The notes beneath the pieces were generated by a model. That model had not been told where the DNA came from, made no database searches, and was given only the letters and a program-made list of their open reading frames with translations. A program made the position numbers and the translations under genes. Positions 5,671-18,623 of a stretch of DNA of 32,000 nucleotides are shown here, piece after piece. Position 1 is the first letter of the stretch. Each line of letters begins with the position of its first letter. Source of the stretch: Pasteurella multocida (GTDB taxonomy: Bacteria > Pseudomonadota > Gammaproteobacteria > Enterobacterales > Pasteurellaceae); the NCBI RefSeq assembly GCF_900187275.1, contig NZ_LT906458.1:480001-512000 (forward strand), given 5' to 3'.

Positions 5671-6645
5671 ATGAACGCAACCTTAAATGTCGCTATTGCG
5701 GCAGAATTCGAATTAAGCGAGAAAATTGCTGAAACACTAGAACAAAGTCAATTAAATATTAGTCAATTATCAATTGTTGAAATTTATCCTTTCAATGAAG
5801 AACAAGGGATACGTTTTCATAATAAAAGTGTGGTACAACTTAAACCAGAAGAGGTGGAATGGTCATCAATCCATTATCTTTTCTTTGCTGGCGATATTCA
5901 GCAAGTCGCTCATCTCGCGAAAGCCGCAGAAATGGGTTGCGTGGTGATTGATATGAAAGGGATTTGTGCCAGCTTGCAAGACGTCCCTGTGGTGATACCG
6001 GGAGTAAATCAGGAAAAATTGGTAGATTTACGTCAGCGTAATATTGTGTCCTTAGCCGATCCACAAGTGACACAACTTGCATTAGTCATCGCCTCGTTGA
6101 TGTCAAATCACGAAATCAAAGACATTGCCGTAACCTCGTTATTACCTGCATCTTATACTAACGGAGAAACGGTAGGTAAATTAGCGGGACAAACAGCGCG
6201 ATTGTTAAATGGCATTCCACTTGATGAAGGCGAACAACGTTTAGCTTTTGATGTTTTCCCTACGCCTGCATCGCATTTAAATATGCAAATTCACAAGATC
6301 TTTCCACAATTAAATAATGTCGTATTTCATTCTATCCAAGTGCCTGTTTTCTACGGGATGGGGCAAATGGTGAGCGTATTATCGGATTATGCATTAGATC
6401 CTCAATCTTGCTTAGCGAGCTGGACTGACAATCCGTTGATGACTTATCATGCAGAAAAATATTGCACCCCAGTGACGAATGGCGAACAGGAAATGGCAGA
6501 AGAGCAAGCAGCAAAATTACATATAAGTGGGTTAAGTGCGGTGGAAAATGGTCTACAATTTTGGTCGGTTGCAGATGAACAGCGCTTTAATCTTGCTTTA
6601 TTGAGTGTTACGCTTGCAGAGTTAATTTACTCGCAAGGTTATTAA
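5671..6645 (+). CDS. usg: USG-1-like protein (aspartate-semialdehyde dehydrogenase family paralog)
   Basis: 324 aa with Asd/ArgC-like architecture (N-terminal Rossmann-like region, IPGVN, ADPQVTQL, C-terminal dimerisation part). Assigned by overall resemblance to enteric and Haemophilus Usg proteins. Confidence 0.65.
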   Translation: MNATLNVAIAAEFELSEKIAETLEQSQLNISQLSIVEIYPFNEEQGIRFHNKSVVQLKPEEVEWSSIHYLFFAGDIQQVAHLAKAAEMGCVVIDMKGICASLQDVPVVIPGVNQEKLVDLRQRNIVSLADPQVTQLALVIASLMSNHEIKDIAVTSLLPASYTNGETVGKLAGQTARLLNGIPLDEGEQRLAFDVFPTPASHLNMQIHKIFPQLNNVVFHSIQVPVFYGMGQMVSVLSDYALDPQSCLASWTDNPLMTYHAEKYCTPVTNGEQEMAEEQAAKLHISGLSAVENGLQFWSVADEQRFNLALLSVTLAELIYSQGY

Positions 6646-6690
6646 TTTAAATGTGTTTTTGCACGATATTTTTATCTTGAACTTTGAGAG

Positions 6691-6718
6691 CGCACTCGTT
6701 TTTGACGAGTGCGTTTTT
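6691..6718 (+). terminator. usg rho-independent terminator, which also forms the left edge of the island
   Basis: CGCACTCGT-ttttg-ACGAGTGCG followed by TTTTT. Its 3' arm ACGAGTGCG is also the first conserved block of junction-repeat copy A. Confidence 0.8.
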
Positions 6719-6746
6719 GTTAAAACATTCGTTTGAAAGACAGTGA
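6705..6746 (+). repeat. island junction repeat, copy A (diverged)
   Basis: acgagtgcgtttttgttaaaacattcgtttgaaagacag aligns with the consensus cgtgtTCACACGAGTGCGGTTTGATTAAAGCACTCGTCAAAGgCGAG..CTAGCTGTGGG seen in copies B-F. Confidence 0.6.
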
Positions 6747-6953
6747 ATGAATAGCGGAGTTATTGATAAGAATCAATTTATACAAAAGCAACTGAATGTT
6801 ATTAATCGAGGCAATAAACCTATTGATAGTTTTAGTTGGCGCCATAATACATAAACTGTACTTAATAATATGCAATCAATACCTAGAAATATTCATGACG
6901 TAATCCAACATATCGGGGAGGGGATTTTAAGTGATGGTAGAAAAAACATTTAG
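6747..6953 (+). pseudogene. orphan WHH (HNH/EndoVII-superfamily) nuclease toxin tip, inactivated
   Basis: The frame reads MNSGVIDKNQFIQKQLNVINRGNKPIDSFSWRHNT*TVLNNMQSIPRNIHDVIQHIGEGILS. It is homologous to copy B, but WHH has become WRH and there is an in-frame TAA at 6852. No N-terminal delivery region is present. Confidence 0.7.
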
Positions 6954-7452
6954 AAATCTAAAAATATATGATGATTATGGTTCTGTCTCTCAGGAAATTA
7001 TTTTTAATTTTGAAAAAGAGTTTGATATAAAACTCCCTTTATCCTATATCTCACTTGTGAAAAAGTATAATGGCGTTTGGTTTAAGGAAAGTGATTTTGA
7101 ATATTTATCTCAAAATGGGAAAAGAATAATAAGCTCATTGAGTTTTGATAGTTTTGAGACAAAAGATAATATCGAACCAATGAATAATATATTAAGACAA
7201 TATATTTATGATGATGAAATTTATGGATATAAGAATGTTTATTCCTTTGGTTACACTGGAAATGGTGACTTTGTCTGTTTTGATTATCGTGATGACCCAA
7301 AAGGTGATGAGCCCAAAATCTGTATCGTGATTCATGATGAATATGATGAAAAAACAGGCAAGCGTTTGTTATTGCCTGTGGCAGAAAATTTTGAGGCATT
7401 TTTAGATATGCTTTACGATTTTGATGAACGCTATCCGAATGGTTATGAATAG
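6934..7452 (+). CDS. SUKH/SMI1-KNR4-family immunity protein, paralog 1
   Basis: Intact 172-aa ORF (ATG at 6934 preferred over GTG at 6931). It has the typical SUKH N-terminus (..IE.FE.EF.IKLP..YI.L..KYNG) and lies directly downstream of, and overlapping, a WHH toxin tip. It is paralogous to 8417..8926 and 10672..11187. Confidence 0.8.
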   Translation: MVEKTFRNLKIYDDYGSVSQEIIFNFEKEFDIKLPLSYISLVKKYNGVWFKESDFEYLSQNGKRIISSLSFDSFETKDNIEPMNNILRQYIYDDEIYGYKNVYSFGYTGNGDFVCFDYRDDPKGDEPKICIVIHDEYDEKTGKRLLLPVAENFEAFLDMLYDFDERYPNGYE

Positions 7453-7508
7453 GTATTTGTTTAAATAATGTGTTGTATTTTTTAAGCATTATTTACAACT
7501 AACATTTT

Positions 7509-7568
7509 AAGTGCGGTCAATTTTGAAAAAGTTTTGGGCTTTGAGAATTGGGCGCATTTTTTTTGAAA
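7509..7568 (+). terminator. USS-containing terminator module, copy 1
   Basis: AAGTGCGGTCAATTttgaaaaagttttgggctttgagAATTGGGCGCATTTTTTTT: exact USS core, imperfect inverted repeat and a T8 run. The same about 55-bp module recurs at 11237 and 13352. Confidence 0.65.
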
Positions 7569-7790
7569 TATTCTTCAATGATGAGCACTAATTATGGATT
7601 AGATAATGGGAATTATCGAGATATGGATGGTAATAAAGGATGGAGGCTAGATTTTGATCCTGAGAAAGTTGTTCATGTAAATATTTTTGACTTTACTAAA
7701 GGTAAAGGACTAGGTAAAGCAGTTAAAAAGTCATTCTTTTTGATAGTACTGAACAAGAGTTTGAAAAATTTTAAAGCAATTAAATAAGGA
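7548..7790 (+). pseudogene. unclassified toxin C-terminal fragment (5'-truncated, frameshifted)
   Basis: It begins inside the preceding terminator with no credible start. It reads ..NYGLDNGNYRDMDGNKGWRLDFDPEKVVHVNIFDFTKGKGLGKAVKK. The natural continuation (ILFDSTEQEFEKF) lies in another frame, which implies a 1-nt indel near 7730. Confidence 0.5.
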
Positions 7791-7797
7791 AGATAAA

Positions 7798-8151
7798 ATG
7801 ACATTATTTGATGAATGTAAATTAGCTCTTAGAGACGATTTTAATCTAATTTGTGATGAAGAGAAGGATTGTGTAATGGATAAGTTTTATTTCTATTTCT
7901 TGGAAAAGAAAGAGGAATTTAATTTTCAAGATTATTCATTTGAAGAAATGTATATATTTTCAAAAATGGAACCTGTGTATGTTTTATGTGATAGCTCTAA
8001 TATACCTTTGTTTAGGAGTAATTGGGAATTGATTATCAATAATATATATGATGTTGTCTGTTTATCTACAAAAGTATTTTTTCTAGATGATGAAAAGTTA
8101 ATGATGGAATTATTTCCTGAAGATAAAGTAAGAGTCATCTATAAAAGATAA
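7798..8151 (+). CDS. putative immunity protein (117 aa, singleton)
   Basis: Intact ORF with SD AAGGAAGATAAAATG, acidic and cytoplasmic, immediately after a toxin remnant. The assignment is by context, and no family was recognised with confidence. Confidence 0.55.
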   Translation: MTLFDECKLALRDDFNLICDEEKDCVMDKFYFYFLEKKEEFNFQDYSFEEMYIFSKMEPVYVLCDSSNIPLFRSNWELIINNIYDVVCLSTKVFFLDDEKLMMELFPEDKVRVIYKR

Positions 8152-8412
8152 TTACCCCTTGATCGCGCTCGTGTCAGCACGAGTTCGCTTTCATTAAAGC
8201 TCTCGTTAAAGACTAGCACTAGCAGTGAGGTTGATCGTAATCAATTTACTGAAGAACAGTTAATTAAAATTAATAAGAGGCTTGATAAAATAGAGGGATT
8301 TACATGGCATCATAACTCACAAAGTAGTCCCCAAAATATGTAGTTAATACCTACACCAATTCATAAGGCTGTTCAGCATATAGGTGAAGGCGCTTTAAGT
8401 GAAGGAAAGTGA
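8152..8412 (+). pseudogene. junction repeat copy B (8167..8230) read through into an orphan WHH nuclease toxin tip with a single nonsense codon
   Basis: The frame is open from 8152: ..DRARVSTSSLSLKLSLKTSTSSEVDRNQFTEEQLIKINKRLDKIEGFTWHHNSQSSPQNM*LIPTPIHKAVQHIGEGALSEGK*. The WHH motif and distal H are intact. TAG at 8341 stands where copy A has CAA. Confidence 0.75.
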
Positions 8413-8416
8413 TAAA

Positions 8417-8926
8417 ATGAAAAATTTTAGGAATATAAATATTTATAGTGATTATGGAAAGGTTGATAAGGAAATTATATTAGAATTCGAAAATGAATTT
8501 AATATAAAGCTTCCTTCTTTATACATAGATTTAATTACGGCGCATAATGCTCCGAAGAGTGAAGAGAATTGCTTTGAATATTACAATGAGCGTAATGAGC
8601 CCACGTTTTCTTCCTTTGGATTTGAAGGGTTTGAGACAGAGCGGTCTAGCGCCTCTCTTGAAAATATATATGCTCAGTATATTTATGATGATCCAATCTA
8701 TGGTTATGAACATGTGTATTCTTTTGGTAGTACTGGCGAGGGACATTTTATCTGTTTTGATTATCGTGATGATCCAAAAGGTGATGAACCCAAAATCTGT
8801 ATCGTGATTCACGATGAATATGATGAAAAAACAGGGAAAATGCGACTGTTTCCTATAGCAGAGAATTTTGAAGCGTTTTTAGATAGTTTGAAATCATTTG
8901 ATGAAATGATAGAGAAGTATTCGTAA
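8417..8926 (+). CDS. SUKH/SMI1-KNR4-family immunity protein, paralog 2
   Basis: Intact 169-aa ORF from ATG 8417 (the track start GTG 8399 overlaps the toxin tail). MKNFRNINIYSDYGKVDKEIILEFENEFNIKLPSLYIDLI... It shares a near-identical DNA block (FDYRDDPKGDEPKICIVIHDEYDEKTGK) with paralog 1. Confidence 0.8.
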   Translation: MKNFRNINIYSDYGKVDKEIILEFENEFNIKLPSLYIDLITAHNAPKSEENCFEYYNERNEPTFSSFGFEGFETERSSASLENIYAQYIYDDPIYGYEHVYSFGSTGEGHFICFDYRDDPKGDEPKICIVIHDEYDEKTGKMRLFPIAENFEAFLDSLKSFDEMIEKYS

Positions 8927-9003
8927 TGTCTCCGTTCATATCTCATAGCGATGCTCTCTCCCCTGATTTTATGGAAATTTTGTTTAAATTAGGAGGGCAC
9001 TAA
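8926..9003 (+). pseudogene. last ~24 codons of a second toxin type (tail only)
   Basis: ..SPFISHSDALSPDFMEILFKLGGH* matches the tail at 9522..9596 (LAPFAVSDLISPDVMEILFKLGGD*). It is cut off at the stop of the preceding SUKH gene. Confidence 0.55.
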
Positions 9004-9004
9004 A

Positions 9005-9358
9005 ATGAAAAAATTTTATTTAATTTTTTTATTATTCCTAAGTGGATGTTTTTATCATGATGGATGTATCTATACTCCTCAGATGGTAAATTGTTTTGTT
9101 GATAAAGGAGATATATTTCCATCAATATCTCGGTATCAAAAGCCTTATAGTCTAGGAAAAACCAATTCAGAACAGCGTTGGAAGGATGTTATGTTTTGTG
9201 GAGGTAAATATGGTGATTATAAATTAGAGAATATAAAAACAGTGGAACAATCGGATAAATTACATCATTGTATGACCCAAAAAGGGTATATCCATTTAAC
9301 TCCCGCAGAATGTGGATACCAAAATCCTAAATGGGATAAAGGCGTTTGTAATTTATAA
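9005..9358 (+). CDS. small lipoprotein, putative periplasmic immunity protein, paralog 1
   Basis: MKKFYLIFLLFLSGC has a signal peptide plus lipobox. SD GGAGGG lies upstream. The C-terminus TPAECGYQNPKWDKGVCNL is shared with 9598..9969. Confidence 0.7.
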   Translation: MKKFYLIFLLFLSGCFYHDGCIYTPQMVNCFVDKGDIFPSISRYQKPYSLGKTNSEQRWKDVMFCGGKYGDYKLENIKTVEQSDKLHHCMTQKGYIHLTPAECGYQNPKWDKGVCNL

Positions 9359-9596
9359 GTGTTTTGGATTTTACTTTACGAATTTTTTTTGAAAAAAGTT
9401 ACCGCAGGTATGTTTTTAATCAAAGCCCAGGTGGCGCTTGTTGGATGTGTTATTCGCATAGTAGTTATTATGCGGAAGTGCTAAATGAATTCATTATTAA
9501 AAATGGAATTAAAGAGCGTAATTAGCACCGTTTGCGGTGAGTGATTTAATTTCTCCTGATGTTATGGAAATATTATTTAAGTTAGGAGGTGATTAG
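9359..9596 (+). pseudogene. longer remnant of the toxin type paired with the lipoproteins (no start, frameshifted)
   Basis: One frame reads ..EKSYRRYVFNQSPGGACWMCYSHSSYYAEVLNEFIIKNGIKERN* (stop at 9523). A second frame continues LAPFAVSDLISPDVMEILFKLGGD* (stop at 9594). A T8 run lies at 9383..9390. No initiation codon is present. Confidence 0.5.
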
Positions 9597-9597
9597 G

Positions 9598-9969
9598 ATG
9601 AAAAAGTTGTTATTGTTCAGTTTATTATTACTTTTAAATGGATGCCTATATTCTTTTGAAGAGGAGTGTTTTAGACCGTTAATTCAGGTGGGGTCATCTG
9701 CTTGTCATAAGAATAAAGGAGATATATTTCCATCAATAGCACGTTTCCAAAAAGTAGAGAACATCGGAAAAACTGATGCCAAGCAACGTTGGAAAGATGC
9801 GGTTGATTGTGGAAGTAAGTATGGCGATGAAGATTTAATATATATAAATGATAATAATTTATATAGCATTTTTCACTCCTGTATGGTTAAAAAAGGATAT
9901 AAAAAGTTTCATCCCGCAGAATGTGGATACCAAAATCCTAAATGGGATAAGGGTATTTGTAATTTATAA
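9598..9969 (+). CDS. small lipoprotein, putative periplasmic immunity protein, paralog 2
   Basis: MKKLLLFSLLLLLNGC (lipobox-like), SD GGAGG. ATG 9598 is preferred over GTG 9589. It shares GDIFPSI.R.QK....GKT...QRWKD...CG.KYGD and ..PAECGYQNPKWDKG.CNL with paralog 1. Confidence 0.7.
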   Translation: MKKLLLFSLLLLLNGCLYSFEEECFRPLIQVGSSACHKNKGDIFPSIARFQKVENIGKTDAKQRWKDAVDCGSKYGDEDLIYINDNNLYSIFHSCMVKKGYKKFHPAECGYQNPKWDKGICNL

Positions 9970-10033
9970 GTGTTTTGAATTTTACTTTACAAACTTTTTT
10001 TGAAAAATGTTACCGCTGGTATGTCTGTTTTTA
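9970..10033 (+). repeat. third, abortive copy of the 5' end of the lipoprotein-cassette unit
   Basis: gtgttttgaattttactttacaaactttttttgaaaaatgttaccgctggtatgtctgttttta matches 9359..9420 and then diverges. This marks a tandem-duplication boundary. Confidence 0.6.
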
Positions 10034-10105
10034 GGGATAAAGATTCGTTCATTTTCTTTAAATTTAGGCACGGTATAAAAGAGCTTGATTATCAAATAAT
10101 AATAT

Positions 10106-10172
10106 CGTGTTCGTGTCCACACGAGTAGGGTTTGATTAAAGTACTCCTCAAAAGCGAGTGCTAGCTGTGGGG
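10106..10172 (+). repeat. island junction repeat, copy C
   Basis: cgtgttcgtgtCCACACGAGTAGGGTTTGATTAAAGTACTCCTCAAAAGCGAGTGCTAGCTGTGGGG. In the frame used by copy B it carries a stop (TGA), followed by a 28-codon tail ending at 10220. Confidence 0.7.
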
Positions 10173-10208
10173 TAAACGGTGGGAAAGAAAGTAAAGAGTA
10201 TATAAACC

Positions 10209-10235
10209 AATTGACCGCATAACGTGCGGTCAATT
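10209..10235. repeat. perfect USS-like inverted repeat hairpin
   Basis: AATTGACCGCA-taacg-TGCGGTCAATT (11-bp stem). The core differs from the canonical USS by one base (ACGTGCGGT). It lies between junction C and the convergent minus-strand ORF. Confidence 0.6.
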
Positions 10236-10243
10236 TCTAAGAT

Positions 10244-10450
10244 TTATGAGTTCCAGAAAAATAGACCGAAAAGTGCGGTAAAGGGGTAACGAAACACAAA
10301 AAATAAAAATATGACAGCAAGCTGTGTCATTAAACCCCAGAAAAAAACTTGACCGATTGTTGCACTGCTGAAAATGGCAAAAAGTAAGCCGATTTCATAG
10401 GGTAGCATTGCAATAAACCAGATTAATCCACTTGGATGATCACTTTTCAT
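10244..10450 (-). CDS. small integral membrane protein (68 aa, 2 predicted TM helices)
   Basis: MKSDHPSGLIWFIAMLPYEIGLLFAIFSSATIGQVFFWGLMTQLAVIFLFFVFRYPFTALFGLFFWNS is preceded by a good SD (TAAGGAGTCCGTAATG). This is the only minus-strand gene in the island. The track's longer version (to 10603) looks like a spurious extension. Confidence 0.55.
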   Translation of the reverse strand: MKSDHPSGLIWFIAMLPYEIGLLFAIFSSATIGQVFFWGLMTQLAVIFLFFVFRYPFTALFGLFFWNS

Positions 10451-10466
10451 TACGGACTCCTTATTT

Positions 10467-10586
10467 ATGGCTGATAACTTAACACTTGTATTGAAAATTA
10501 AAGCAGATTTAAACAATGCGTTGAGCGATTTTAAAGCGCTTAAAACGGAATTGCAACGCGCAGGCGTGGAGTCTATCAGTAAGTAA
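10467..10586 (+). CDS. 39-aa ORF, possible N-terminal fragment of a phage-type structural protein
   Basis: MADNLTLVLKIKADLNNALSDFKALKTELQRAGVESISK* has an amphipathic coiled-coil-like start reminiscent of tape-measure N-termini. No SD is present. This is a weak call. Confidence 0.2.
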   Translation: MADNLTLVLKIKADLNNALSDFKALKTELQRAGVESISK

Positions 10587-10611
10587 CTCGCCAGTTTTTG
10601 CAATCATTTAT

Positions 10612-10650
10612 CATATTCACAAAGCCGTAATGCATATTGGAGAAGGTTAA
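10612..10650 (+). pseudogene. last ~12 codons of a third WHH toxin tip
   Basis: HIHKAVMHIGEG* aligns with PIHKAVQHIGEGALS of copy B. Everything upstream has been replaced by the 10244..10603 segment. Confidence 0.6.
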
Positions 10651-10671
10651 GTGTAAGTGAAGGAAGATAAA

Positions 10672-11187
10672 ATGAAATTTAGACATTTTGGCATTTATTA
10701 TGATTATGGCGTAGTTTCCCAAGAGATTATTTTAGATTTTGAGGAAACGTTTGGTATTAAATTACCAAAATTGTATATTGAGTTGATCACAAAACATAAT
10801 TCCCCAAGATTGAATAGAGATCATTTCAATTATTATGATTTCTCTACGAGTGAGGAAGAAGGAACGGAATTTATATTCAAAGGATTTGAAACAGAAAGTA
10901 ATAGGCATGCGCCGCCAGAAAATATTTATGCACAATATCTTTATGATGATGAAATATATGGTTATGAACATGTGTATTCTTTTGGCAGTACCGCTAGTGG
11001 TGACTTTGTCTGTTTTGATTACCGAGATAATCCGAAAGGCAGTGAACCTAAAATTTGTCTTGTGATTCATGATGAATATGATGAAGAAACAGGCAAGCAT
11101 TTATTGTTTCCTGTGGCAGAAAATTTTGAGGTATTTTTAGATATGCTTTACGATTTTGATGAACGCTATCCGAATGGTTATGAATAG
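10672..11187 (+). CDS. SUKH/SMI1-KNR4-family immunity protein, paralog 3
   Basis: Intact 171-aa ORF from ATG 10672 (SD AAGGAAGATAAAATG). The 3' ~90 bp plus the downstream ~70 bp are near-identical to paralog 1 (..PVAENFE.FLDMLYDFDERYPNGYE*). Confidence 0.8.
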   Translation: MKFRHFGIYYDYGVVSQEIILDFEETFGIKLPKLYIELITKHNSPRLNRDHFNYYDFSTSEEEGTEFIFKGFETESNRHAPPENIYAQYLYDDEIYGYEHVYSFGSTASGDFVCFDYRDNPKGSEPKICLVIHDEYDEETGKHLLFPVAENFEVFLDMLYDFDERYPNGYE

Positions 11188-11236
11188 GTATTTAAATAAT
11201 GTATTGTATTTTTTAAGCGTTATTTAATAACGTTTT

Positions 11237-11286
11237 AAGTGCGGTCAATTTCAAAAAAGTTTTGCTTTGAGGAATTGACCGTTTTT
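11237..11286 (+). terminator. USS-containing terminator module, copy 2
   Basis: AAGTGCGGTCAATTtcaaaaaagttttgctttgaggAATTGACCGTTTTT: exact USS, 9-bp outer stem (CGGTCAATT/AATTGACCG) and a T-run. Confidence 0.7.
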
Positions 11287-11334
11287 GTATCATGGATATG
11301 ATGTGAGCAATTGATATCCTGTTTGTGTTAACTG

Positions 11335-11380
11335 GCATGTGGTAAAGCATTCGTCAAAGACGAGCTCTAGTGGTGAGGGA
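11335..11380 (+). repeat. island junction repeat, copy D (3' half only)
   Basis: gcatgtGGTAAAGCATTCGTCAAAGACGAGCTCTAGTGGTGAGGG. In the copy-B frame it reads VVKHSSKTSSSGEGLI and runs straight into the ATG of the next ORF. Confidence 0.65.
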
Positions 11381-11386
11381 CTAATC

Positions 11387-11773
11387 ATGAATGAACTATT
11401 GGACTTTTATAGAAATATAACTTTTTTTGAAGAATATGATGAAAACTCATTCATAGGAAGATGGCTTGATTACTCGGAATGGAATGATAAAGAATATTGG
11501 AAATTAGAGAAAGATTTACTGAAAATTGCTCAAATGTATAGAACTACTAATGAAGTTTTTCCAGATATTTTAATAGGGGTTATGCGTATCATTGAATTAT
11601 TAATGATACCTAACTGGAATAGTTTTATAATATCTAATTCAGAAAGTGTTGATATTTATGATAGATATGAACGATTTAAATATATAATTTCAATACTTTT
11701 CAATAATAAAGATGTTAGACTAGATGGCTTTTCATATACAGAAAAGAATGATGATGTATTTTATAATGAATAG
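11387..11773 (+). CDS. putative immunity protein (128 aa, singleton)
   Basis: MNELLDFYRNITFFEEYDENSFIGRWLDYSEWNDKEYWKLEKDLLKI... is an acidic cytoplasmic ORF. The track start at 11339 merely includes the junction repeat. The assignment is by context. Confidence 0.55.
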   Translation: MNELLDFYRNITFFEEYDENSFIGRWLDYSEWNDKEYWKLEKDLLKIAQMYRTTNEVFPDILIGVMRIIELLMIPNWNSFIISNSESVDIYDRYERFKYIISILFNNKDVRLDGFSYTEKNDDVFYNE

Positions 11774-11835
11774 AAAAATTAAAAGTAAGCTAATTTGTAG
11801 AAATAATAAAAGTCTCGCTTGTATTTTTTCTTTGA

Positions 11836-11872
11836 GATCGTGCTTGAGTCCACACGAGTGCTAGCTGTAGGC
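11836..11872 (+). repeat. island junction repeat, copy E (internally deleted)
   Basis: gatcgtgcttgagTCCACACGAGTG|CTAGCTGTAGGC: the outer blocks are retained but the central GGTTTGATTAAAGCACTCGTCAAAGGCGAG block is missing. Confidence 0.6.
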
Positions 11873-11954
11873 AGAGTGTCTTGGTGATTATAAAAAGTTA
11901 AGGATAGTATTGTTGATATGAAAGAAAAGACTAAATATTCAATGGGGAATCAAA

Positions 11955-12077
11955 GTGATAAAAAATAAATTTTATATTTCTTGGTTAGGATTTTCAATAT
12001 CATTATATGTTTTGCTTTTATGTAGAGATTTGTTTTATTCTCTTTATATGTTTTTTATTATGATGTATTTGTCTTAA
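11955..12077 (+). CDS. 40-aa hydrophobic ORF, possibly a fragment of a decayed membrane protein
   Basis: VIKNKFYISWLGFSISLYVLLLCRDLFYSLYMFFIMMYLS*. The same frame stays hydrophobic after the stop (NFLLRRRFLLSLFLLCYVSLFIIHYSLFYI*) and runs through the heptamer repeat. Confidence 0.25.
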   Translation: MIKNKFYISWLGFSISLYVLLLCRDLFYSLYMFFIMMYLS

Positions 12078-12130
12078 AATTTTCTTTTAAGGAGGCGTTT
12101 TTTACTATCTTTATTTTTATTGTGCTATGT

Positions 12131-12160
12131 TTCATTATTCATTATTCATTATTCATTATT
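12131..12160 (+). repeat. heptanucleotide tandem repeat (TTCATTA) x4.3
   Basis: ttcatta ttcatta ttcatta ttcatta tt is perfect. It lies 112 bp upstream of the ATG at 12272 and just upstream of TATATATAAAT. Confidence 0.9.
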
Positions 12161-12271
12161 TTATATATAAATATGGTAAAAGGTCTGAATGCCCAAAAAA
12201 GAAACCATTAAGTGAAAATGTAACATACAATAAAAGGTAGTAGGAATAAATAAAATATTAGGAATAACAGA

Positions 12272-12715
12272 ATGATAAAATATTTAGAGGGAAATATTAA
12301 CTCGTTTATATCGGCATTAGGTAAAAACGAAAGTAATAAAGATATTTTAAAATTAGTAGAAATAGTTTCTTCAGATTTTGAAGTGGATGAACTAAGTCAT
12401 AAAGATGAACACGAGATATATTATTTGTTTTATAAGAGGGGTGTTGAATTTTGTTTTAAAAGAATAGATGAAGAGTATGTCTTATATTCGGTTTTCTTTT
12501 TCTTGGTAGAGGTTGATAATTATTTTTCATGCCCATTTATTCATGAATTAATATGTGATCTTAAACACGGATTCTCAATAGAGGATATTATAAGGTTTTT
12601 AGGGGAGCCAAATTTTAAAGGTAGTGGCTGGGTAAGATATTCTTATAATGGAAGAAATATTCATTTCGAATTTAATGAATCTAATGAATTATCCCAGATT
12701 AGCATTTTTATTTAA
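12272..12715 (+). CDS. putative immunity protein (147 aa, singleton)
   Basis: The ORF is intact. Its C-terminal ..IIRFLGEPNFKGSGWVRYSYNGRNIHFEFNESNELSQISIFI has the pattern common in small immunity families (LG.P...gg.W..Y....i.f.f......i..I.i). The assignment is by context. Confidence 0.5.
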   Translation: MIKYLEGNINSFISALGKNESNKDILKLVEIVSSDFEVDELSHKDEHEIYYLFYKRGVEFCFKRIDEEYVLYSVFFFLVEVDNYFSCPFIHELICDLKHGFSIEDIIRFLGEPNFKGSGWVRYSYNGRNIHFEFNESNELSQISIFI

Positions 12716-12729
12716 TAATTTAGGATTGG

Positions 12730-12894
12730 GAACGCTCTCGTGTTCACACAAGTGCGGTTTGATTAAAGCACTTGTCAAAGGCGAGATCCAGCTGTGGGAG
12801 ATTTGATAGAGAAATGGCTCTCAGGATTGACGTTAGTAGAGGGAGCATAAATCAAGAAAAAACATTTAAAATAGGAACATTAGGTGGTGAGTAA
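12730..12894 (+). pseudogene. junction repeat copy F (12730..12800) plus a ~30-codon residual toxin tail
   Basis: gaacgctctcgtgTTCACACAAGTGCGGTTTGATTAAAGCACTTGTCAAAGGCGAGATCCAGCTGTGGGAG contains an exact USS core at 12750..12758. In the copy-B frame there is a TGA at 12760, then LKHLSKARSSCGRFDREMALRIDVSRGSINQEKTFKIGTLGGE*, whose TAA overlaps the next ATG (TAATG). Confidence 0.6.
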
Positions 12895-13298
12895 TGGAAA
12901 TCACTCGTTTTAAAATCCTACTTATTGCCTTGATTATATTAGGTAATGGGTATGTGTTTCTTGGTGGACCAGCTAAAAAACAATTCGCTATAGAAGCAGA
13001 AACAAGGCGGATTTATCGTACTTTAACGAAAGAAATTATTTTTATGAATGGAGAATATAAACAATTTGGAGGGCGAGTTATTCAAGGATTTACTTTAGTC
13101 ATTTCTTTTTCTCATTCAAGTACAGAAAACCGCATTAAGATTTTAGAAAAAATTAAAGAGATGGGATTTGATTCAAAAAATAAAACATCAAAACCGAGTC
13201 TTCATCTTTTTTGTCAAGGAGAAAGTGGTTTTTTGATCGCAGAAAAACCTGAATTTAGAATAGATTATGAGAAAAAGATGACTTATTGTTTGGAGTAG
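12894..13298 (+). CDS. membrane-anchored protein (134 aa, N-terminal TM helix), putative immunity protein
   Basis: MEITRFKILLIALIILGNGYVFLGG is followed by a soluble domain. The start is coupled (TAATG) to the upstream toxin-tail frame. Confidence 0.55.
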   Translation: MEITRFKILLIALIILGNGYVFLGGPAKKQFAIEAETRRIYRTLTKEIIFMNGEYKQFGGRVIQGFTLVISFSHSSTENRIKILEKIKEMGFDSKNKTSKPSLHLFCQGESGFLIAEKPEFRIDYEKKMTYCLE

Positions 13299-13351
13299 CA
13301 AAGGAAGGCAATGATAAGTGTATTTTCTAATCAGATTTAATTTAAGTATTA

Positions 13352-13403
13352 AAGTGCGGTCAATTTTGAAAACGTTTTACTTTGAAAAATTGACCGTTTT
13401 TTT
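13352..13403 (+). terminator. USS-containing terminator module, copy 3
   Basis: AAGTGCGGTCAATTTtgaaaacgttttactttgaaAAATTGACCGTTTTTTT: exact USS, 10-bp outer stem and a T7 run. Confidence 0.75.
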
Positions 13404-13417
13404 ACATGAGAGAGTGA

Positions 13418-13774
13418 AAGTACACCACCTTAGGCAATGTGGTTGTGGATAAGGTGATTAAGGAATACCCAAATGGGGGTTATGAAGCGAGGGTGCTGAT
13501 CCCTAACCCGAAAGCGAAAACCGATCCTGATGCGCCGAAATTTTTGGAGAAAAGGGGAAATGAAGGTGTATCCACAATGTTTCCAAGAACATGGACAGAG
13601 GATAGGTTGAAAGTGGAGTTAGAGCATGCGTTTAATAATAGAGTACCAATGGAAAAGTTTGAAAATAAATGGGAAGGTATAACAAAATCAGGCGTGAAAG
13701 TAGAATGGGTTCTGGATAGAAATGGTAAAGTGTTGACTGTTTATCCTTCTAGGAAACAAGGAGTTATAAAATGA
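13418..13774 (+). pseudogene. EndoU-like (bacterial EndoU nuclease-type) toxin C-terminal fragment
   Basis: The frame is open from 18 nt after the terminator. ..GVSTMFPRTWTEDRLKVELEHAFNN...ITKSGVKVEWVLDRNGKVLTVYP resembles the distal half of bacterial EndoU toxin domains (K..FP..Ws.e.i....gv.i.vv.d..g.i.TayP). The His-bearing proximal half and any delivery region are absent. The only start is the weak GTG at 13439. Confidence 0.5.
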
Positions 13775-14196
13775 AAGTAAAATTTGGTTATTATGCTTTG
13801 AATGGAGACTGGGATACTTATTGTAAAGTATATGAAAGTGATAATAAGTATGATGATAGTGTTGTTACTGACTATATTGGTACATTAGACGAGCTAAATT
13901 GGATAGATAACATATTACAAATGCTTAAAAATCCATCACTTGATAGAGGGTGGATTGATGCAGAGCCTTTTGAAGCTTTGATAGATCATGATCAAATAAA
14001 AGTGGGTTTCTATTTATTGGATGATATGGAAGAAGAGGACATCCCTGATGATGTTGACGAAAGAGATACCGATCCCCGTTTCATCCCCCGTAAAGAATTT
14101 GCCTATTTACTGGAAAAATGGATCGCTTTTTACCAAAGACCTATTACTGATATGAATTACCAAGAAATTATTGACACCAAGGAGGCGTATTTATGA
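13771..14196 (+). CDS. putative immunity protein for the EndoU-like toxin, paralog 1 (141 aa)
   Basis: The start overlaps the toxin stop (ATGA at 13771..13774). It is highly acidic (DDMEEEDIPDDVDERD) and paralogous to 14336..14728. Confidence 0.7.
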   Translation: MKVKFGYYALNGDWDTYCKVYESDNKYDDSVVTDYIGTLDELNWIDNILQMLKNPSLDRGWIDAEPFEALIDHDQIKVGFYLLDDMEEEDIPDDVDERDTDPRFIPRKEFAYLLEKWIAFYQRPITDMNYQEIIDTKEAYL

Positions 14197-14335
14197 CTGT
14201 GATTGTGGGTGGATATTCCACCTTAGGCAAGGTGATAAAAGAATAATAAAATCAGGTGTTGAAGTGATATAACATTTTGATAAAATAATAATATTTCAAC
14301 AGTTTATCCAGTAATAAATTGATGGAGATAATAAA
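14197..14335 (+). pseudogene. internally deleted second copy of the EndoU-like toxin fragment
   Basis: ggatattCCACCTTAGGCAAggtgataaaagaata matches 13421..13460, and aaatcaggtgttgaagtga...cagtttatcca matches 13684..13745. The ~220 bp between them is missing and there are multiple stops. Confidence 0.6.
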
Positions 14336-14728
14336 ATGAAAGTTCTTTTTAGTTATGGCACATATAATAATCGCCCACATAAAGCTTGCTGCGTTTATGA
14401 AAGTAATAATCGGGAAAATGATGAGGTGATTATTGATTATCTTAGCACGTTGGAACGTTTAAGTTGGATGAGTAAGGTATTAGAGATGCTTCGAGATTCA
14501 ACGATTACTCGGGATTGGATTAGTTCGCAGTCATTTGATGCCTTGATAGATCATGATCAAATAAAAGTGGGTTTCTATCTGTTAGATGATATGGAAGAAG
14601 AGGACATCCCTGATGATGTTGATGAGAGAGATACCGCTCCCCGTTTCATTCCCCGTAAAGAATTTGCCTATTTGCTAGAAAAATGGCTGGATTTTTACCA
14701 CAGACCTATTACTGATATGAATTACTAA
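14336..14728 (+). CDS. putative immunity protein for the EndoU-like toxin, paralog 2 (130 aa, C-terminally shortened)
   Basis: The central ~75 aa are nearly identical to paralog 1. It ends at TAA where paralog 1 has CAA (..DMNYQEIIDTKEAYL vs ..DMNY*), and the downstream DNA is still homologous. Confidence 0.7.
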   Translation: MKVLFSYGTYNNRPHKACCVYESNNRENDEVIIDYLSTLERLSWMSKVLEMLRDSTITRDWISSQSFDALIDHDQIKVGFYLLDDMEEEDIPDDVDERDTAPRFIPRKEFAYLLEKWLDFYHRPITDMNY

Positions 14729-14838
14729 GAAATTATCGATACTAAGGACGCATATTGATAATCAGCTTGAGAAAACATCCTCTGTTCTTTTATGCCTGAT
14801 ATTTAATTAAGCGAACAATAAGAGAGCGGAAACGTGAT

Positions 14839-15582
14839 TTACTTTTCTTTCCAATAACCGAGCCATTCTTTTAACAGCAACATATTTTTGTTCAGGGCAC
14901 CCGCTTGTGGGATAAAATACATCACATTAAGTCCATAACTTTGGGGTGAAATACCGTGCCCTACACTAGCAGGTAAAACCTCGAATCCTTGTTGTTCAAA
15001 AAGCAGTTTAGCACGTTGCATATGCCATTGGTTTGTTACGACAATAACGCGTTTAATGCCTTCTTTTTCGAGAATCTCACGACTAAACAAAGCATTCTCT
15101 TTGGTAGTTCTTGCCTTACCCTCCACCCATGTTGTTGGAACAGAAAAGAAAGTATTGAGTTCATTTGCCATGATTTGCGCTTCTGAAATTCCTTTTGGTG
15201 AACTACCTGTAATCAATAATGGAAGTTGGGTTTGCTTTTGTAAATAAGCAGCATAACGAACGCGCTCTAGCGGGATCGCACTCACCGTCAGCTTGTCGTA
15301 TAACTCTTTGCTATCACGTAATCCGCCTCCAAGTAATACAATCGCCTGGGCTTGTTGATAATCAGCTAGGCTTAACTTGTCTTCAATGACTAAGCTATCT
15401 TCAATCTTATGTGAAGTATAAGGCAAACTAAAAATATAGAGGATCGTGAGACCTAGGAGTGCACATAAACGGCTGAGTTTTTTATAATGTAAGACAGAAA
15501 AGAGCAAAGACAGTAGCCAAAGAATCAGCACATTAAATGGCGGAAGAATAACGACAGTAATGAGTTTTGTGAGTCCGAACAT
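14839..15582 (-). CDS. elyC: DUF218/YdcF-family envelope biogenesis protein (ElyC-like)
   Basis: Two N-terminal TM helices are followed by a DUF218 core (AIVLLGGG......SG......EA..M........P...I..E..A.TT.ENA......L...GI..VI.VT...HM.RA...F...G). Confidence 0.75.
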   Translation of the reverse strand: MFGLTKLITVVILPPFNVLILWLLSLLFSVLHYKKLSRLCALLGLTILYIFSLPYTSHKIEDSLVIEDKLSLADYQQAQAIVLLGGGLRDSKELYDKLTVSAIPLERVRYAAYLQKQTQLPLLITGSSPKGISEAQIMANELNTFFSVPTTWVEGKARTTKENALFSREILEKEGIKRVIVVTNQWHMQRAKLLFEQQGFEVLPASVGHGISPQSYGLNVMYFIPQAGALNKNMLLLKEWLGYWKEK

Positions 15583-15699
15583 GTTAAGTAAAGATAAGTA
15601 AAAGGTGTACTATTATTCATGATCTCCCCTTGGTTGTCTATTGTTTAAAATTGTATTGTTGTTAAAATGGCGCCTTAGTTATTTGACCTAGAGCACAGC

Positions 15700-16899
15700 A
15701 TGAAAGCCATTAAAGACAGTGCAATTTATTTATTCGGAGAGTTGATTTCCAGATCGGTGCCTTTCCTTTTATTACCGTATTTGTCCCGTAAATTAGGGGT
15801 AGAGGGTTTTGGTGAACTGTCTTACTATCAAACTTATCTTGCCTTATTTCTGATTATAGTTGGGTTAAGCCAAGAAGGTGCCATTGCGCGTTTTTTTTAC
15901 GTTTATGGTAAACGCGCCTTAAATTTAGTGGTAAATGCGGGATACGCTTATACCTTGTCTATTGGTAGCGTGATCTTAGCATTTTGCCTCTTCTTTAAGG
16001 CAGAGATGTTGGCGTATTTAGCACTTTCTGCGATTTTTCAATCTTTCTTGGCGGTCCAATTAAGTGTTCGGCAATGTCAGAAACAGGCTGTGGCGTATTC
16101 TGTCATCCAATTTCTTTCAGCAAGTTTATCCGCAGGTATCACCGTTTTCATGTTAGAAATGTATCAAACCGAGTTGGTAGAAAAGCGGATTTTGGCGATT
16201 TTATTCAGTAATTTGTTAGTTTTTCTGTTTGCTTATCTTTTATATCGCCAAAAAACACGGATAAAATCGTTTAATTTTCGTCAGTATAAGACCGCACTTT
16301 ATTATCTATTGGGCTTTGGCTTGCCATTAATCTTTCATAATGTCAGTCTATTTTTACGTGGACAGTTAGATCGGATTTTTATTTATCATGCCTTTAGTGA
16401 AGCGGAACTGGGGCTGTACGCGATGGGCGCACAAATTGCAGCAATTGTGATGATTCTGATTCAAGTGTTAAATAAAGCCTTAGTCCCTTATTTTTTTGAG
16501 GGCTTAAAACAGCAACGTATCACATTAGTGCAGGTACAACGATGGGCAAGATACAGTTTGTTATTGGTGCCGATCCCTGCTTTGATCATGTGGTTTATTC
16601 CAGAGCCATTTGTTGTTTGGTTATTAGGGAACCAATTTGTTGGCACTAAATACTATATTGTGCTGTTTTTGATTGCCACGACCCTCGTGGTGCCTTATCT
16701 GATTTTAGTGAATTATCTGTTTTATCATGGTCAGAATAAGTCAATTTCGATTTGTTCTGTGTTAACCACATTGATTTATGTGATCAGCTTATTGGGTTTG
16801 ACCCTCACCGAGATCCAGTTTGTGCCATTAGCCAGTATTATTGGTGCAATCAGCATTTTACCTGTGTTGTATTGGATGACGGCTAAAGTAGGAAAGTAA
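15700..16899 (+). CDS. wzx: oligosaccharide/polysaccharide flippase (Wzx, MOP superfamily)
   Basis: 399 aa with about 12 hydrophobic segments and a typical Wzx N-terminus (..[38 protein letters not shown]). It is the first gene of the glycosyltransferase operon. Confidence 0.75.
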
Positions 16900-16900
16900 A

Positions 16901-17827
16901 ATGAATTTGATTATTTGTTGTACACCGTTACAGGTGTTGATTGCAGAAAAAATTATCGCTAAATTTCCGCATACGTCATTTTATGGTGTCATGCTTTCAA
17001 CAGTCAGTAATAAAAAATTTGATTTTTATGCAAAGCGGCTTGCGCAACAGTGCCAAGGTTTTTTTTCCATGGTGCAGCATAAGGATCGCTTCAATCTATT
17101 AAAAGAAATTCTGTATTTAAAACGAACGTTTTCGGGTAAGCACTTTGATCAGGTTTTTGTGGCAAACATTAATGACTTACAAATTCAGTTTTTATTAAGT
17201 GCCATTGACTTTAATCTGTTAAATACCTTTGATGACGGCACAATTAATATTGTACCGAATAGTCTTTTTTACCAAGATGACCCTGCCACGTTGCAGCGAA
17301 AACTGATTAATGTGCTGTTAGGTAATAAATACAGTATTCAATCATTACGCGCTTTATCCCATACACACTACACTATTTATAAAGGCTTCAAGAATATTAT
17401 TGAACGGGTGGAGCCGATTGAATTGGTCGCAGCAGATAACAGTGAAAAAGTCACTTCAGCGGTGATTAACGTATTGCTTGGGCAACCCGTTTTTGCTGAA
17501 GATGAACGCAATATTGCCTTAGCGGAACGCGTGATCAAACAATTTAATATTCATTATTATTTGCCTCATCCACGCGAAAAGTATCGTTTAGCCCAAGTCA
17601 ATTACATTGATACGGAATTGATCTTTGAAGATTATATTCTTCAGCAATGTCAAACCCACAAATACTGTGTTTATACATATTTTAGTAGCGCCATTATTAA
17701 TATCATGAATAAAAGTGACAATATTGAAGTGGTAGCATTAAAAATTGACACAGAAAATCCCGCCTATGATGCTTGTTATGATTTGTTTGATGAGCTAGGC
17801 GTTAACGTTATTGATATAAGAGAGTAA
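16901..17827 (+). CDS. GT52-family LOS sialyltransferase (Lst/LsgB/SiaA-like)
   Basis: The N-terminus MNLIICCTPLQVLIAEKII is the signature start of Pasteurellaceae/Neisseria GT52 sialyltransferases. Size and context fit, and the gene is separated from wzx by 1 nt. Confidence 0.75.
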   Translation: MNLIICCTPLQVLIAEKIIAKFPHTSFYGVMLSTVSNKKFDFYAKRLAQQCQGFFSMVQHKDRFNLLKEILYLKRTFSGKHFDQVFVANINDLQIQFLLSAIDFNLLNTFDDGTINIVPNSLFYQDDPATLQRKLINVLLGNKYSIQSLRALSHTHYTIYKGFKNIIERVEPIELVAADNSEKVTSAVINVLLGQPVFAEDERNIALAERVIKQFNIHYYLPHPREKYRLAQVNYIDTELIFEDYILQQCQTHKYCVYTYFSSAIINIMNKSDNIEVVALKIDTENPAYDACYDLFDELGVNVIDIRE

Positions 17828-17828
17828 T

Positions 17829-18614
17829 ATGCAGAAATGGCTTATTTCATTAGAAAAAGATCACGCGCGTCGTGAGCATTTTTTTGCTCAACCAGATACG
17901 GCGGACTTCACTGTCTTTTCTGCAATGAATACCATGCAGGAAAGTTGGGAAAATTTGACCGCACTTTTTGATCTTAACCGTTTTCAACAATATTATGGGC
18001 GAGCGGTGACTAAAGGGGAAGTGGGGTGTACGCTCAGTCATTTTGCGGTGTACCAACAGATCGTAGGCGATGCCACGATATCAGAAAATGACTATTGTTT
18101 AGTCTGTGAAGACGATGTGCTGTTTAATCAAGGTTTTCAGCGACATCTTGAGACGTTACTGACACAAAAACCGCAGGCAGATGTCATTTTAGTTGGACAA
18201 TCAAAAATTGATCACTTTGAGGCAAGCGAGCTCGAAATTAATTATCCGACGACATTTGCGTGTTGTGCAAAGAAAATTGCCCATTCGTCATTTTATTACG
18301 CATATCCTTATAAAAATTACTTTGCAGGAACCGTGGCGTATTTGATTAAGAAATCTGCGGCTCGAGTATTTATTGAACAATCACAACAAGGACAACGTCC
18401 ATTCTGGTTAGCGGATGATTTTATCTTATTTGGTCGCGATTTTTGCTTGGACATCATGGTCGTGCGCCCATTATTGGCGATTGAAAACCCCGCATTAGTC
18501 AGTAATTTAGAGGCGAGTCGAGGCTCGGTTTCACATCATTTATGGCAGAAATGGCTGAAATATCCGTTGAAAAAATGGTTAGCAATTCAACGTAATTTTC
18601 AGATTAAAGGTTAG
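17829..18614 (+). CDS. GT25-family LOS glycosyltransferase (Lic2B/LpsA/LgtB-like)
   Basis: ..ISLEKDHARREHF........F.VFSA......GEVGCTLSH........CLVCEDDV.. is the typical GT25 layout. Confidence 0.7.
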   Translation: MQKWLISLEKDHARREHFFAQPDTADFTVFSAMNTMQESWENLTALFDLNRFQQYYGRAVTKGEVGCTLSHFAVYQQIVGDATISENDYCLVCEDDVLFNQGFQRHLETLLTQKPQADVILVGQSKIDHFEASELEINYPTTFACCAKKIAHSSFYYAYPYKNYFAGTVAYLIKKSAARVFIEQSQQGQRPFWLADDFILFGRDFCLDIMVVRPLLAIENPALVSNLEASRGSVSHHLWQKWLKYPLKKWLAIQRNFQIKG

Positions 18615-18623
18615 GTACAGGGT

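Follow-up and report, generated by a model that had tools for sequence, protein, structure and literature searches.

The usg-ydcF interval

The stretch analysed here, hereafter the window, is a 32-kb segment of Pasteurella multocida (NZ_LT906458.1, assembly GCF_900187275.1, forward strand 480,001-512,000), and coordinates given without a locus name are counted within it. Between usg (5671-6645) and a ydcF/DUF218 gene on the minus strand (14839-15582) lies an 8.2-kb island (6646-14838, + strand) that its GC content, open reading frames (ORFs), Pfam matches and variability at the same site in other strains identify as the decayed orphan array of a contact-dependent growth inhibition (CDI) locus. 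The GC content of the island is 0.317, against 0.393 in the left flank and 0.400 in the right, and its length is occupied to 57% by exactly 11 open small ORFs, all on the + strand. A preliminary description of this DNA had reported an AT-rich island with 11 co-oriented, immunity-like ORFs, namely three SUKH genes, two lipoprotein genes, two paralogs linked to EndoU and singletons starting at 7798, 11387, 12272 and 12894, and this inventory is borne out in full. Outside these ORFs the + strand carries one stop per ~12 codons, and the probability that any one immunity frame is open by accident is 1e-5 to 1e-7 each. The immunity ORFs are spaced by ~80 to ~690 nt, and upstream of each lies a broken toxin tip, or none.

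Every protein encoded in the island or its flanks matches, exactly or nearly so, sequences named P. multocida, and the product of usg falls into the cluster of Usg1 from Pm70. Exact island protein sequences occur on 500-700 contigs, and for the two main sequences of YdcF the numbers are about 900 and 800; the arrangement in the window is one common state of a fixed site with hypervariable content, and CP003328.1, CP199472.1 and GCA_013013085.1 are examples of strains of this type. Within the island there is no homology to CdiB, a TPS domain, FHA repeats, PT-VENN, Rhs, an integrase or a transposase, and no ORF encodes either of the last two. When CdiB, the N-terminus of CdiA, fragments with FHA repeats and four fragments bearing VENN were used as tblastn queries against the whole 32-kb window, only toxin-tip ends were returned, in agreement with the preliminary description, which had seen no delivery N-terminus, secretion component or mobility gene.

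Immunity genes of the island

For eight of the 11 ORFs there is a match to a named family of immunity type, and the Pfam profile searches that the preliminary description had proposed recovered SUKH, CdiI_ImmP, Imm41 and DUF5376. The three SUKH genes (PF09346) encode proteins of 172 aa (6934-7452, 1.8e-19; called as a gene in comparison locus L013), 169 aa (8417-8926, 8.8e-18) and 171 aa (10672-11187, 8.1e-19). The 117-aa product of 7798-8151 belongs to the CdiI_ImmP family (PF24172, 1.2e-21) and matches the solved structure 5t86_I, annotated 'CdiI immunity protein' (2.1e-18). The 128-aa Imm41 protein (11387-11773; PF15592, 7.3e-29) shares 99% amino acid identity with its counterpart in the corresponding locus of Bisgaard Taxon 45 (L001:20155-20541). 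Two DUF5376 genes (PF17346) close the array: gene a (13771-14196, 141 aa, 3.3e-43) is of full length, and gene b (14336-14728, 1.6e-44, profile positions 1-126 of 136) ends at a premature stop ~11 codons early (130 vs 141 aa), beyond which the translation reads ...EIIDTKDAY before the next stop. DUF5376 follows EndoU in all loci examined (L001, L019, L020, L023, L025 and L028), and because of this association we assign it by context as the probable EndoU immunity protein.

The eighth match is that of the 147-aa ORF at 12272-12715, for which the sources disagree: a precomputed Pfam table lists PF19929 (CdiI_5), and our own hmmscan, with E up to 1, gave nothing. Its homolog in L028, a draft genome, stands directly 3' of a VENN-bearing CdiA fragment. 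The 134-aa product of 12894-13298 begins with a hydrophobic stretch that we read as a membrane helix, and belongs to a small family (16 representatives); it is 88% identical to a 135-aa ORF in L023 (CP097620.1) whose start overlaps the stop of a VENN-bearing CdiA fragment of 788 aa. From their position directly after VENN-bearing CdiA fragments in relatives, the 147-aa and 134-aa ORFs are both assigned as cdiI genes. Counting by either route, nine of the 11 ORFs either match an immunity family already named in Pfam or a solved CdiI structure, or have a copy in a relative directly after a VENN-bearing CdiA fragment.

The remaining two ORFs are the putative immunity lipoproteins. Lipoprotein 1 (9005-9358, 117 aa, lipobox LSGC) has no Pfam or PDB match and is considered here for its position after a toxin tail; lipoprotein 2 (9598-9969, 123 aa, lipobox LNGC) is an ORF whose product is 54% identical to it. 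A periplasmic location would suit immunity to an envelope-acting toxin. An NCBIfam search of the unannotated ORFs returned nothing, and PDB sequence searches with the 147-aa ORF, DUF5376, the 134-aa ORF and a lipoprotein gave no meaningful match. A single-sequence AlphaFold model of the 134-aa ORF reached a pLDDT of 41.6 and was not used. Genomic context thus offers candidate assignments for families that annotation leaves blank, with DUF5376 as EndoU immunity, the 134-aa and 147-aa ORFs as CdiI and the lipoproteins as probable immunity proteins against an envelope-acting toxin. The Pfam families DUF5376 and PM0498 were themselves already built on proteins of the P. multocida locus.

Toxin remnants between the immunity genes

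The toxin halves of these modules, all on the + strand, are dead: every one is truncated to 14-110 codons or carries stops. Apart from the WHH, 5T86-type and EndoU pieces, they comprise short tails of four other toxins. Three of the remnants are WHH/HNH nuclease tips. The first (6687-6941) has stops at 6744 and 6852 and a WHH motif mutated to WRH, and its translation is 45% identical over 85 aa to the WHH end of a CdiA fragment designated P0113 (tblastn). The second (8227-8409) is interrupted by a single nonsense codon at 8341; it matches the same fragment at 64% over 61 aa (tblastn) and shows 94% nucleotide identity to an intact 94-aa WHH ORF in Bisgaard Taxon 45 (L001:12474-12758). The third (10170-10656), recognised in a three-frame translation, is a heavily degenerate, stop-filled WHH-type C-terminal remnant ending in ...HIHKAVMHIGEG and a stop. 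A minus-strand ORF inside this degenerate toxin DNA (10244-10603), with a weak DUF350 match only, is probably spurious and was rejected as a gene.

Ahead of the CdiI_ImmP gene, a 79-aa ORF (7548-7787) is a fragment of a 5T86-type CdiA C-terminal toxin (phmmer to PDB 5t86_A, 'CdiA toxin', 5.8e-12), with its residues 24-62 (39 residues) aligning to residues 49-87 of 106. Chains A and I of the one structure 5T86 therefore match adjacent ORFs, 7548-7787 and 7798-8151. Both lipoprotein genes are preceded by toxin tails identified from translation. The first, an unassigned tail reading ...SPDFMEILFKLGGH before its stop (8927-9004), also ends the 83-86-aa toxin-tail ORFs upstream of lipoprotein genes at L001:13400-13660 and L002:11510-11761, which close with ...MEILFKLGG. 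The second copy, ...SPDVMEILFKLGGD and a stop (9525-9597), lies in DNA with 96% nucleotide identity to L001 13601-14185. Between lipoprotein 1 and this second tail sits a 28-residue remnant of a P0002-type toxin domain with an NHSRGG motif (9415-9498; tblastn to P0002, 68% over 28 aa), which has a weak DUF7379 match in Pfam and longer versions in L023 and L028.

In the right half of the island the toxins are reduced further. The last 14 codons of a P0117-type CdiA C-terminal region (12228-12271) precede the 147-aa ORF and mark the point, 12228, from which the window has 96% nucleotide identity to L028, where the CdiA ORF (28-1683) overlaps the cdiI start. Likewise, the last ~15 codons of a glycine-rich CdiA C-terminal region (12847-12893, ...KTFKIGTLGGE and a stop) precede the 134-aa ORF, with 88% nucleotide identity to L023 starting at 12847; the C-terminal region of the 788-aa CdiA fragment there ends ...HTFKIGTLGSE. 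The best preserved piece is an EndoU RNase fragment (13421-13774; PF14436, 1.8e-15, positions 37-128 of a 129-position model), which matches residues 896-1004 of a 1007-aa CdiA fragment in L001 (tblastn), lacks the first third of the domain and begins its homology just after the GGH motif of that fragment. After DUF5376 gene a there remains the stub of a second EndoU domain start (14197-14260), translating to TVIVGGYSTLGKVIKE and two stops, to be compared with MTVIVGGHSTLGN... at L001:19133-19483. The earlier statement that no toxin is intact holds for every tip in the island, with one correction: the EndoU fragment is an open ORF of 109-111 aa, listed as a gene in public records.

The same site in relatives and the parent locus

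Comparison of the usg-ydcF interval across genomes, which the preliminary description had suggested, revealed strain-variable content and pointed to the parent system. Array content differs at the same site among the window type, the Pm70 type, CP023305.1, CP097620.1 and others. The only trace of delivery genes seen at this site in the P. multocida loci compared is in L017 (CP023305.1), where positions 14530-20744 of the minus strand encode a cdiB 3' end, a TPS-type CdiA N-terminus of 1166 aa, a continuation of 553 aa and a deaminase tip. The pieces are separate, stop-interrupted ORFs, none of them among the called genes, and we read the frames as pseudogenes of cdiB and cdiA. Several other loci (L023, L024, L028 and L029) hold VENN-bearing cdiA fragments that are truncated at the 5' end. 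In L023 the array exceeds 16 kb and includes two such fragments, one of 776 aa with VENN and WHH that is followed by SUKH, the other the 788-aa fragment with VENN and a glycine-rich tip. In L028 the stop of the VENN-bearing fragment overlaps the homolog of the 147-aa ORF, and the downstream gene order is that of window positions 12272-14196. The island of the sister taxon, Bisgaard Taxon 45 (L001), has a 1007-aa ORF with Fil_haemagg_2 repeats, PT-VENN and a complete EndoU domain, then DUF5376, as well as the intact 94-aa WHH ORF followed by SUKH. Pm70 carries an 11.3-kb island of other modules (an EC869-like toxin with two CdiI genes, PM0498, Imm42 and several EndoU/DUF5376 pairs) in which no cdiB or CdiA N-terminus was found. 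In ten Pasteurellaceae genomes that are more distant, neither ydcF nor an island homolog lay within the 10 kb that follow usg.

These relatives supply the cognate pairs from which the remnants in the window can be read: the WHH-type CdiA fragment P0113 is followed by SUKH, the P0117 C-terminal region by the 147-aa ORF, and the 788-aa CdiA fragment by the 134/135-aa ORF. A MafB or Rhs parent was considered and rejected, as no such domains were found and all longer relatives of the tips are CdiA fragments. The preliminary description had recognised orphan toxin-tip and immunity modules detached from any parent gene in the window, and this reading stands, with the parent now identified as a CdiA/CdiB system of type Vb. 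Across the compared genomes the interval is the CDI locus of the species caught at different stages of decay, from interrupted cdiB and cdiA frames in one strain, through VENN-bearing, 5'-truncated cdiA in several, to orphan modules only in Pm70 and the window type.

Two observations on the relatives concern the arrays themselves. In the 94-aa WHH ORF of L001 (12474-12758), ~nine codons taken from the beginning of a 92-aa lipoprotein gene (L001 14956-15234; MTKLF.KIS) are followed by a short repeat, termed E and treated below, and then by the nuclease; recombination has given this ORF a chimeric start. In L029 (JBHMOE010000002.1) an element at 7637-17469, which carries two genes of the phage integrase family as well as MerR, cation-efflux and ArsC cargo, directly follows a 611-aa CdiA fragment that matches P0113 and ends early without WHH, and so appears to have cut the array. 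The integrases of L029 belong to this separate element inserted into the array.

Origin and probable function of the island

On balance we favour, with reasonable but incomplete confidence, the view that the island is the remnant of a P. multocida cdiBAI locus of type Vb whose immunity genes have been retained against the CdiA toxins of neighbouring cells. What the sequences show is the anatomy, the homologies, the CDI origin, the differences between strains and purifying selection on the immunity genes; expression, protection, the identity of the attackers and the route of recombination are inferred. In this model the ancestral locus would have comprised cdiB, cdiA with roughly 1,900 codons and, behind it, a series of orphan cdiA-CT/cdiI modules (CT, C-terminal toxin region). 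In the strain type of the window, cdiB would then have been lost by deletions together with all of cdiA that serves delivery and with the VENN region of every orphan, leaving eleven cdiI-type genes, each behind the last few to ~110 toxin codons or directly behind a boundary repeat. Each immunity protein would most likely bind and block one family of CdiA C-terminal toxins injected by neighbouring Pasteurellaceae that still deploy them, the SUKH proteins facing WHH DNases, DUF5376 facing EndoU RNases, CdiI_ImmP facing the 5T86-type toxin, and the membrane-anchored and lipoprotein ORFs facing toxins that act on the envelope. The array may be reshuffled among strains and with the sister species through homologous recombination after natural transformation.

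The preliminary description had left room for a silent cassette library that recombines with a toxin gene elsewhere; in the present case the modules would recombine with a full-length cdiA elsewhere in the genome and so change the toxin that is deployed. For orphan modules as a class this is the accepted explanation (PMC3150448, PMC5422565), and orphans in other P. multocida strains, which keep 400-600 cdiA codons upstream of VENN, could serve in this way. The window itself holds neither VENN nor pre-VENN sequence, its toxin parts being truncated to 14-110 codons or stopped, and with no VENN and no usable toxin part, recombination could therefore not yield a working toxin; nor was a cdiA with a matching pre-toxin region seen in window-type genomes, although whole genomes were not scanned. 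For this strain type we regard a library as very improbable.

Recruitment to a role unrelated to CdiA, whether defence against secreted bacteriocins or phage, or regulation, seems to us equally remote. SUKH and Imm families do neutralise toxins from several secretion routes (PMC3482391), and three of the ORF families here have no characterised function. Nevertheless, nine of the 11 ORFs are tied to a VENN-bearing CdiA or to an immunity family, with the lipoproteins following toxin-tail fragments only, and no sequence feature suggests another function.

A repeat homologous to the usg terminator, and uptake signals

The left edges of modules are marked by the repeat E, an extension to ~70 nt of a ~61-nt repeat noted previously, of which the window contains five and a half copies, all on the + strand. 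The leftmost, E0 (6681-6747, nhmmer 48.8 bits), is the usg terminator, a hairpin with a U run that folds at -24.7 kcal/mol (z -3.6). The others lie at 8159-8228 (66.8 bits; beginning ~5-10 nt past the CdiI stop codon), 10099-10169 (61.8 bits), 11308-11375 (50.6 bits; abutting the Imm41 start with no toxin remnant between) and 12725-12796 (67.2 bits), with a partial copy at 11830-11861 (16.7 bits). From the partial copy to the last 14 toxin codons of the P0117-type module extends ~370 nt of AT-rich DNA (11862-12227, GC 0.23-0.26) that had no detectable homology to any sequence compared. Further copies of E occur at L023 9932-10000, L029 5596-5665 and L017 13609-13679. Two copies of E begin 5-10 nt beyond the stop codon of an immunity gene, and in relatives the end of E coincides exactly with the first codon of cdiA fragments that are cut at different depths.

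This repeat had been taken for a junction within the 3' part of a toxin ORF, a proposal that does not survive its homology to the usg terminator and the presence of stops in all three + frames of 3/5 copies. A composite query of junction and WHH found only short P. multocida fragments, and the junction was rejected as pre-toxin coding sequence. Nor did E emerge as a structured RNA: a search of 6000-15500 against Rfam found none, the consensus structure is weak (RNAalifold, only -6 kcal/mol), and the inner copies are decayed versions of the usg terminator that fold little better than shuffled sequence. E had no match in JGI metagenomes, nor beside usg in ten other genomes of Pasteurellaceae; these usg-ydcF islands were the only places in which it was found. 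The most economical interpretation is that modules became joined, time and again, at sequence of the usg flank or were cut back to it by deletion, and that recombination between E copies reshuffles the array.

The strong terminators inside the island have a different source. Uptake signal sequences (USS; AAGTGCGGT) paired with an inverted partial copy form three hairpins with U runs on the + strand, at 7509-7565 (USS and a degenerate inverted copy; -17.9 kcal/mol, z -3.2), 11237-11287 (-19.9 kcal/mol, z -5.1) and 13352-13404 (-16.3 kcal/mol, z -4.0); a further such pair lies at 10209-10235 on the minus strand. The three terminators divide the island into at least four segments.

Selection and probable exchange between species

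The immunity genes bear the mark of purifying selection. Measured against Bisgaard Taxon 45 orthologs, the ratio of nonsynonymous to synonymous substitution rates (dN/dS) ranges overall from 0.07 to 0.35, with 0.07 for Imm41, 0.15 for lipoprotein 1, 0.16 for the second SUKH gene, 0.27 for lipoprotein 2 (vs L001) and 0.29-0.35 for more divergent pairs; three core genes gave 0.00-0.09. Sequence divergence also carries a signal of exchange. The modules at 8154-8953, 9525-10110 and 11275-12272 have 89-96% nucleotide identity to L001, several of them 94-96%, against ~87% in the flanking core, and dS is 0.045 for Imm41 and 0.062 for lipoprotein 2 against 0.29-0.53 in the core, that is, 5-10 times lower. 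Because module identity is higher and dS lower than in the core, these values suggest recent module exchange between P. multocida and Bisgaard Taxon 45, and such exchange is plausible since the lineage is naturally transformable and the island contains five perfect uptake signal sequences.

Retention of the immunity genes for protection has to be weighed against the view that the island is a neutral relic, a CDI locus in mid-decay whose immunity genes are open since they are short, decayed later or were until recently selected, with no present function. A good deal in the island fits a relic: all delivery and toxin parts are already destroyed, one DUF5376 copy has its premature stop, the internal E copies and the segments 10170-10656 and 11862-12227 are plainly degenerate, searches turned up no intact P. 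multocida CdiA of this lineage, and promoter signal does not rise above chance. What such a relic does not readily account for is the coexistence of 11 open immunity ORFs with 0 intact toxins in DNA where stops recur every ~12 codons, the dN/dS values of 0.07-0.35 and the identical protein sequences on 500-700 contigs, and the apparently recent exchange of modules with a sister species, which is hard to reconcile with useless DNA. We therefore consider a purely neutral relic unlikely, if clearly the strongest of the competitors.

Several observations nonetheless weigh against retained immunity. The premature stop in DUF5376 gene b shows that decay has reached the immunity genes too, and the low between-species dN/dS could mostly reflect selection that predates the loss of the toxins. 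Three strong internal terminators mean that each segment needs its own promoter, and a scan for promoter consensus was uninformative, with 43 sites vs 43.3 expected in shuffled sequence. The immunity role of the lipoproteins, drawn from their position after toxin-tail fragments, is the weakest of our proposed assignments. Regarding possible attackers, the P. multocida proteins that the 1007-aa and 1166-aa CdiA queries retrieved from the protein collection were all fragments of <=788 aa, with no close relative of the N-terminus among the matches, and the L017 CdiA N-terminus had no P. multocida relative among 5.8 billion proteins, its best match being 50% identical and from another source. Intact CDI may accordingly be rare or absent in P. 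multocida. No match in this collection exceeded 2,041 aa, while CdiA/FhaB proteins are often >3,000 aa, and the collection may cap or split long proteins, a possible length limit that weakens any conclusion that full-length CdiA is missing.

If the immunity genes are indeed retained for protection, E might have a part in keeping them current. The repeat could act as a portable homology anchor through which transformed DNA adds, swaps or deletes immunity modules with no dedicated recombinase, being kept because it updates protection against CdiA toxins. We offer this as a speculative extension that is more likely wrong than right, left possible because E abuts variably cut cdiA, is specific to the islands, and several modules seem to have passed between the two species more recently than the core genome. 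It would amount to an integrase-free 'immunity cassette' system common to P. multocida and Bisgaard Taxon 45.

Comparison with known orphan arrays

Orphan cdiA-CT/cdiI arrays and orphan immunity arrays are already well known, and the island in the window is a further example. According to Poole et al. 2011, orphan cdiA-CT/cdiI arrays lie downstream of cdiBAI in E. coli EC869, Y. pseudotuberculosis PB1/+ and N. meningitidis FAM18; the orphan fragments usually encode VENN and some upstream cdiA, some lack VENN or are disrupted by other elements, and in E. coli EC93 the toxins of the orphans have activity and there is transcription of the orphan region (PMC3150448). The window shares with these arrays the tandem, co-oriented pairing of a cdiA 3' fragment with a small immunity ORF, here as 11 modules on the + strand, the homology of tips and immunities to CdiA CT/CdiI pairs elsewhere, and strain-variable content. 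It differs in having no upstream cdiBAI, no fragment that keeps VENN and no intact toxin, so that the immunity halves alone survive; VENN is present in the relatives L001, L017, L023, L028 and L029 and absent from the window. The left edges of the modules in the window carry a repeat related to the terminator of the flanking gene, a feature that the available text of Poole et al. does not mention (PMC3150448).

Polyimmunity loci, as defined by Zhang et al. (2011 and 2012), are never interrupted by toxin cassettes, have short gaps that suggest one transcript, and often stand beside XerC/D-type recombinases (PMC3113570, PMC3482391). Adjacent, co-oriented genes of many unrelated immunity families, several SUKH paralogs, Imm41 and variation among strains are common to these loci and the window, whereas the window has toxin remnants between most genes, gaps of up to ~690 nt, three terminators and no recombinase. 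The poly-immunity reading raised in the preliminary description is thus sustained in its substance, retained immunity being favoured, but the island is not a polyimmunity locus in the strict sense (PMC3482391). Supernumerary immunity genes have been proposed to protect pre-emptively against the toxins of non-kin (PMC3113570, PMC3482391).

Orphan immunity arrays in the V. cholerae clusters for type VI secretion (T6SS) arise by effector displacement (Kirchberger et al. 2017, PMC5361080). They resemble the window in that old immunity genes are retained after effector loss, in a naturally transformable species and in strain-specific arrays; there, however, the T6SS is present and active and the effector was replaced, whereas the locus in the window lost the whole weapon. 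The acquired interbacterial defence (AID) clusters of Bacteroidales, which Ross et al. are said to have described in 2019, reportedly contain orphan immunity genes that protect against the contact-delivered toxins of other strains; these clusters are said to be directed against T6SS effectors and to reside on mobile elements or with a recombinase, whereas the array in the window is at a fixed site, has no mobility gene and derives from CDI. An integron-like or mobile cassette array is likewise a poor parallel, as the window lacks a recombinase and E has only a weak consensus structure (-6 kcal/mol). In the searchable literature, cdiA and SUKH proteins of P. multocida receive passing mentions, and a description of this locus was not found.

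P. multocida is a major veterinary and zoonotic pathogen of crowded upper-airway and oral communities. If the retained immunity is active, the strain-specific content of this one locus would determine between which strains and related species mutual exclusion by contact-dependent toxins is possible, with a bearing on carriage, co-infection and competition among live-vaccine strains. The locus offers a clean natural example, in an important pathogen, of a genotype that is disarmed and predicted to be immune, and the natural decay series at the site (interrupted cdiB/cdiA, VENN-bearing fragments, tips only, immunity only) could be used to test how 'disarmed but shielded' genotypes originate.

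Flanking genes

To the right of the island, 15700-21495 is occupied by a glycan cluster comprising a Polysacc_synt flippase, GT52 (a sialyltransferase family), GT25, a 395-aa protein without a family and two GT2 genes. Beyond this cluster lie genes for an SLT_2 transglycosylase, a xanthine/uracil permease, DsrE and a RecB-like helicase-nuclease.

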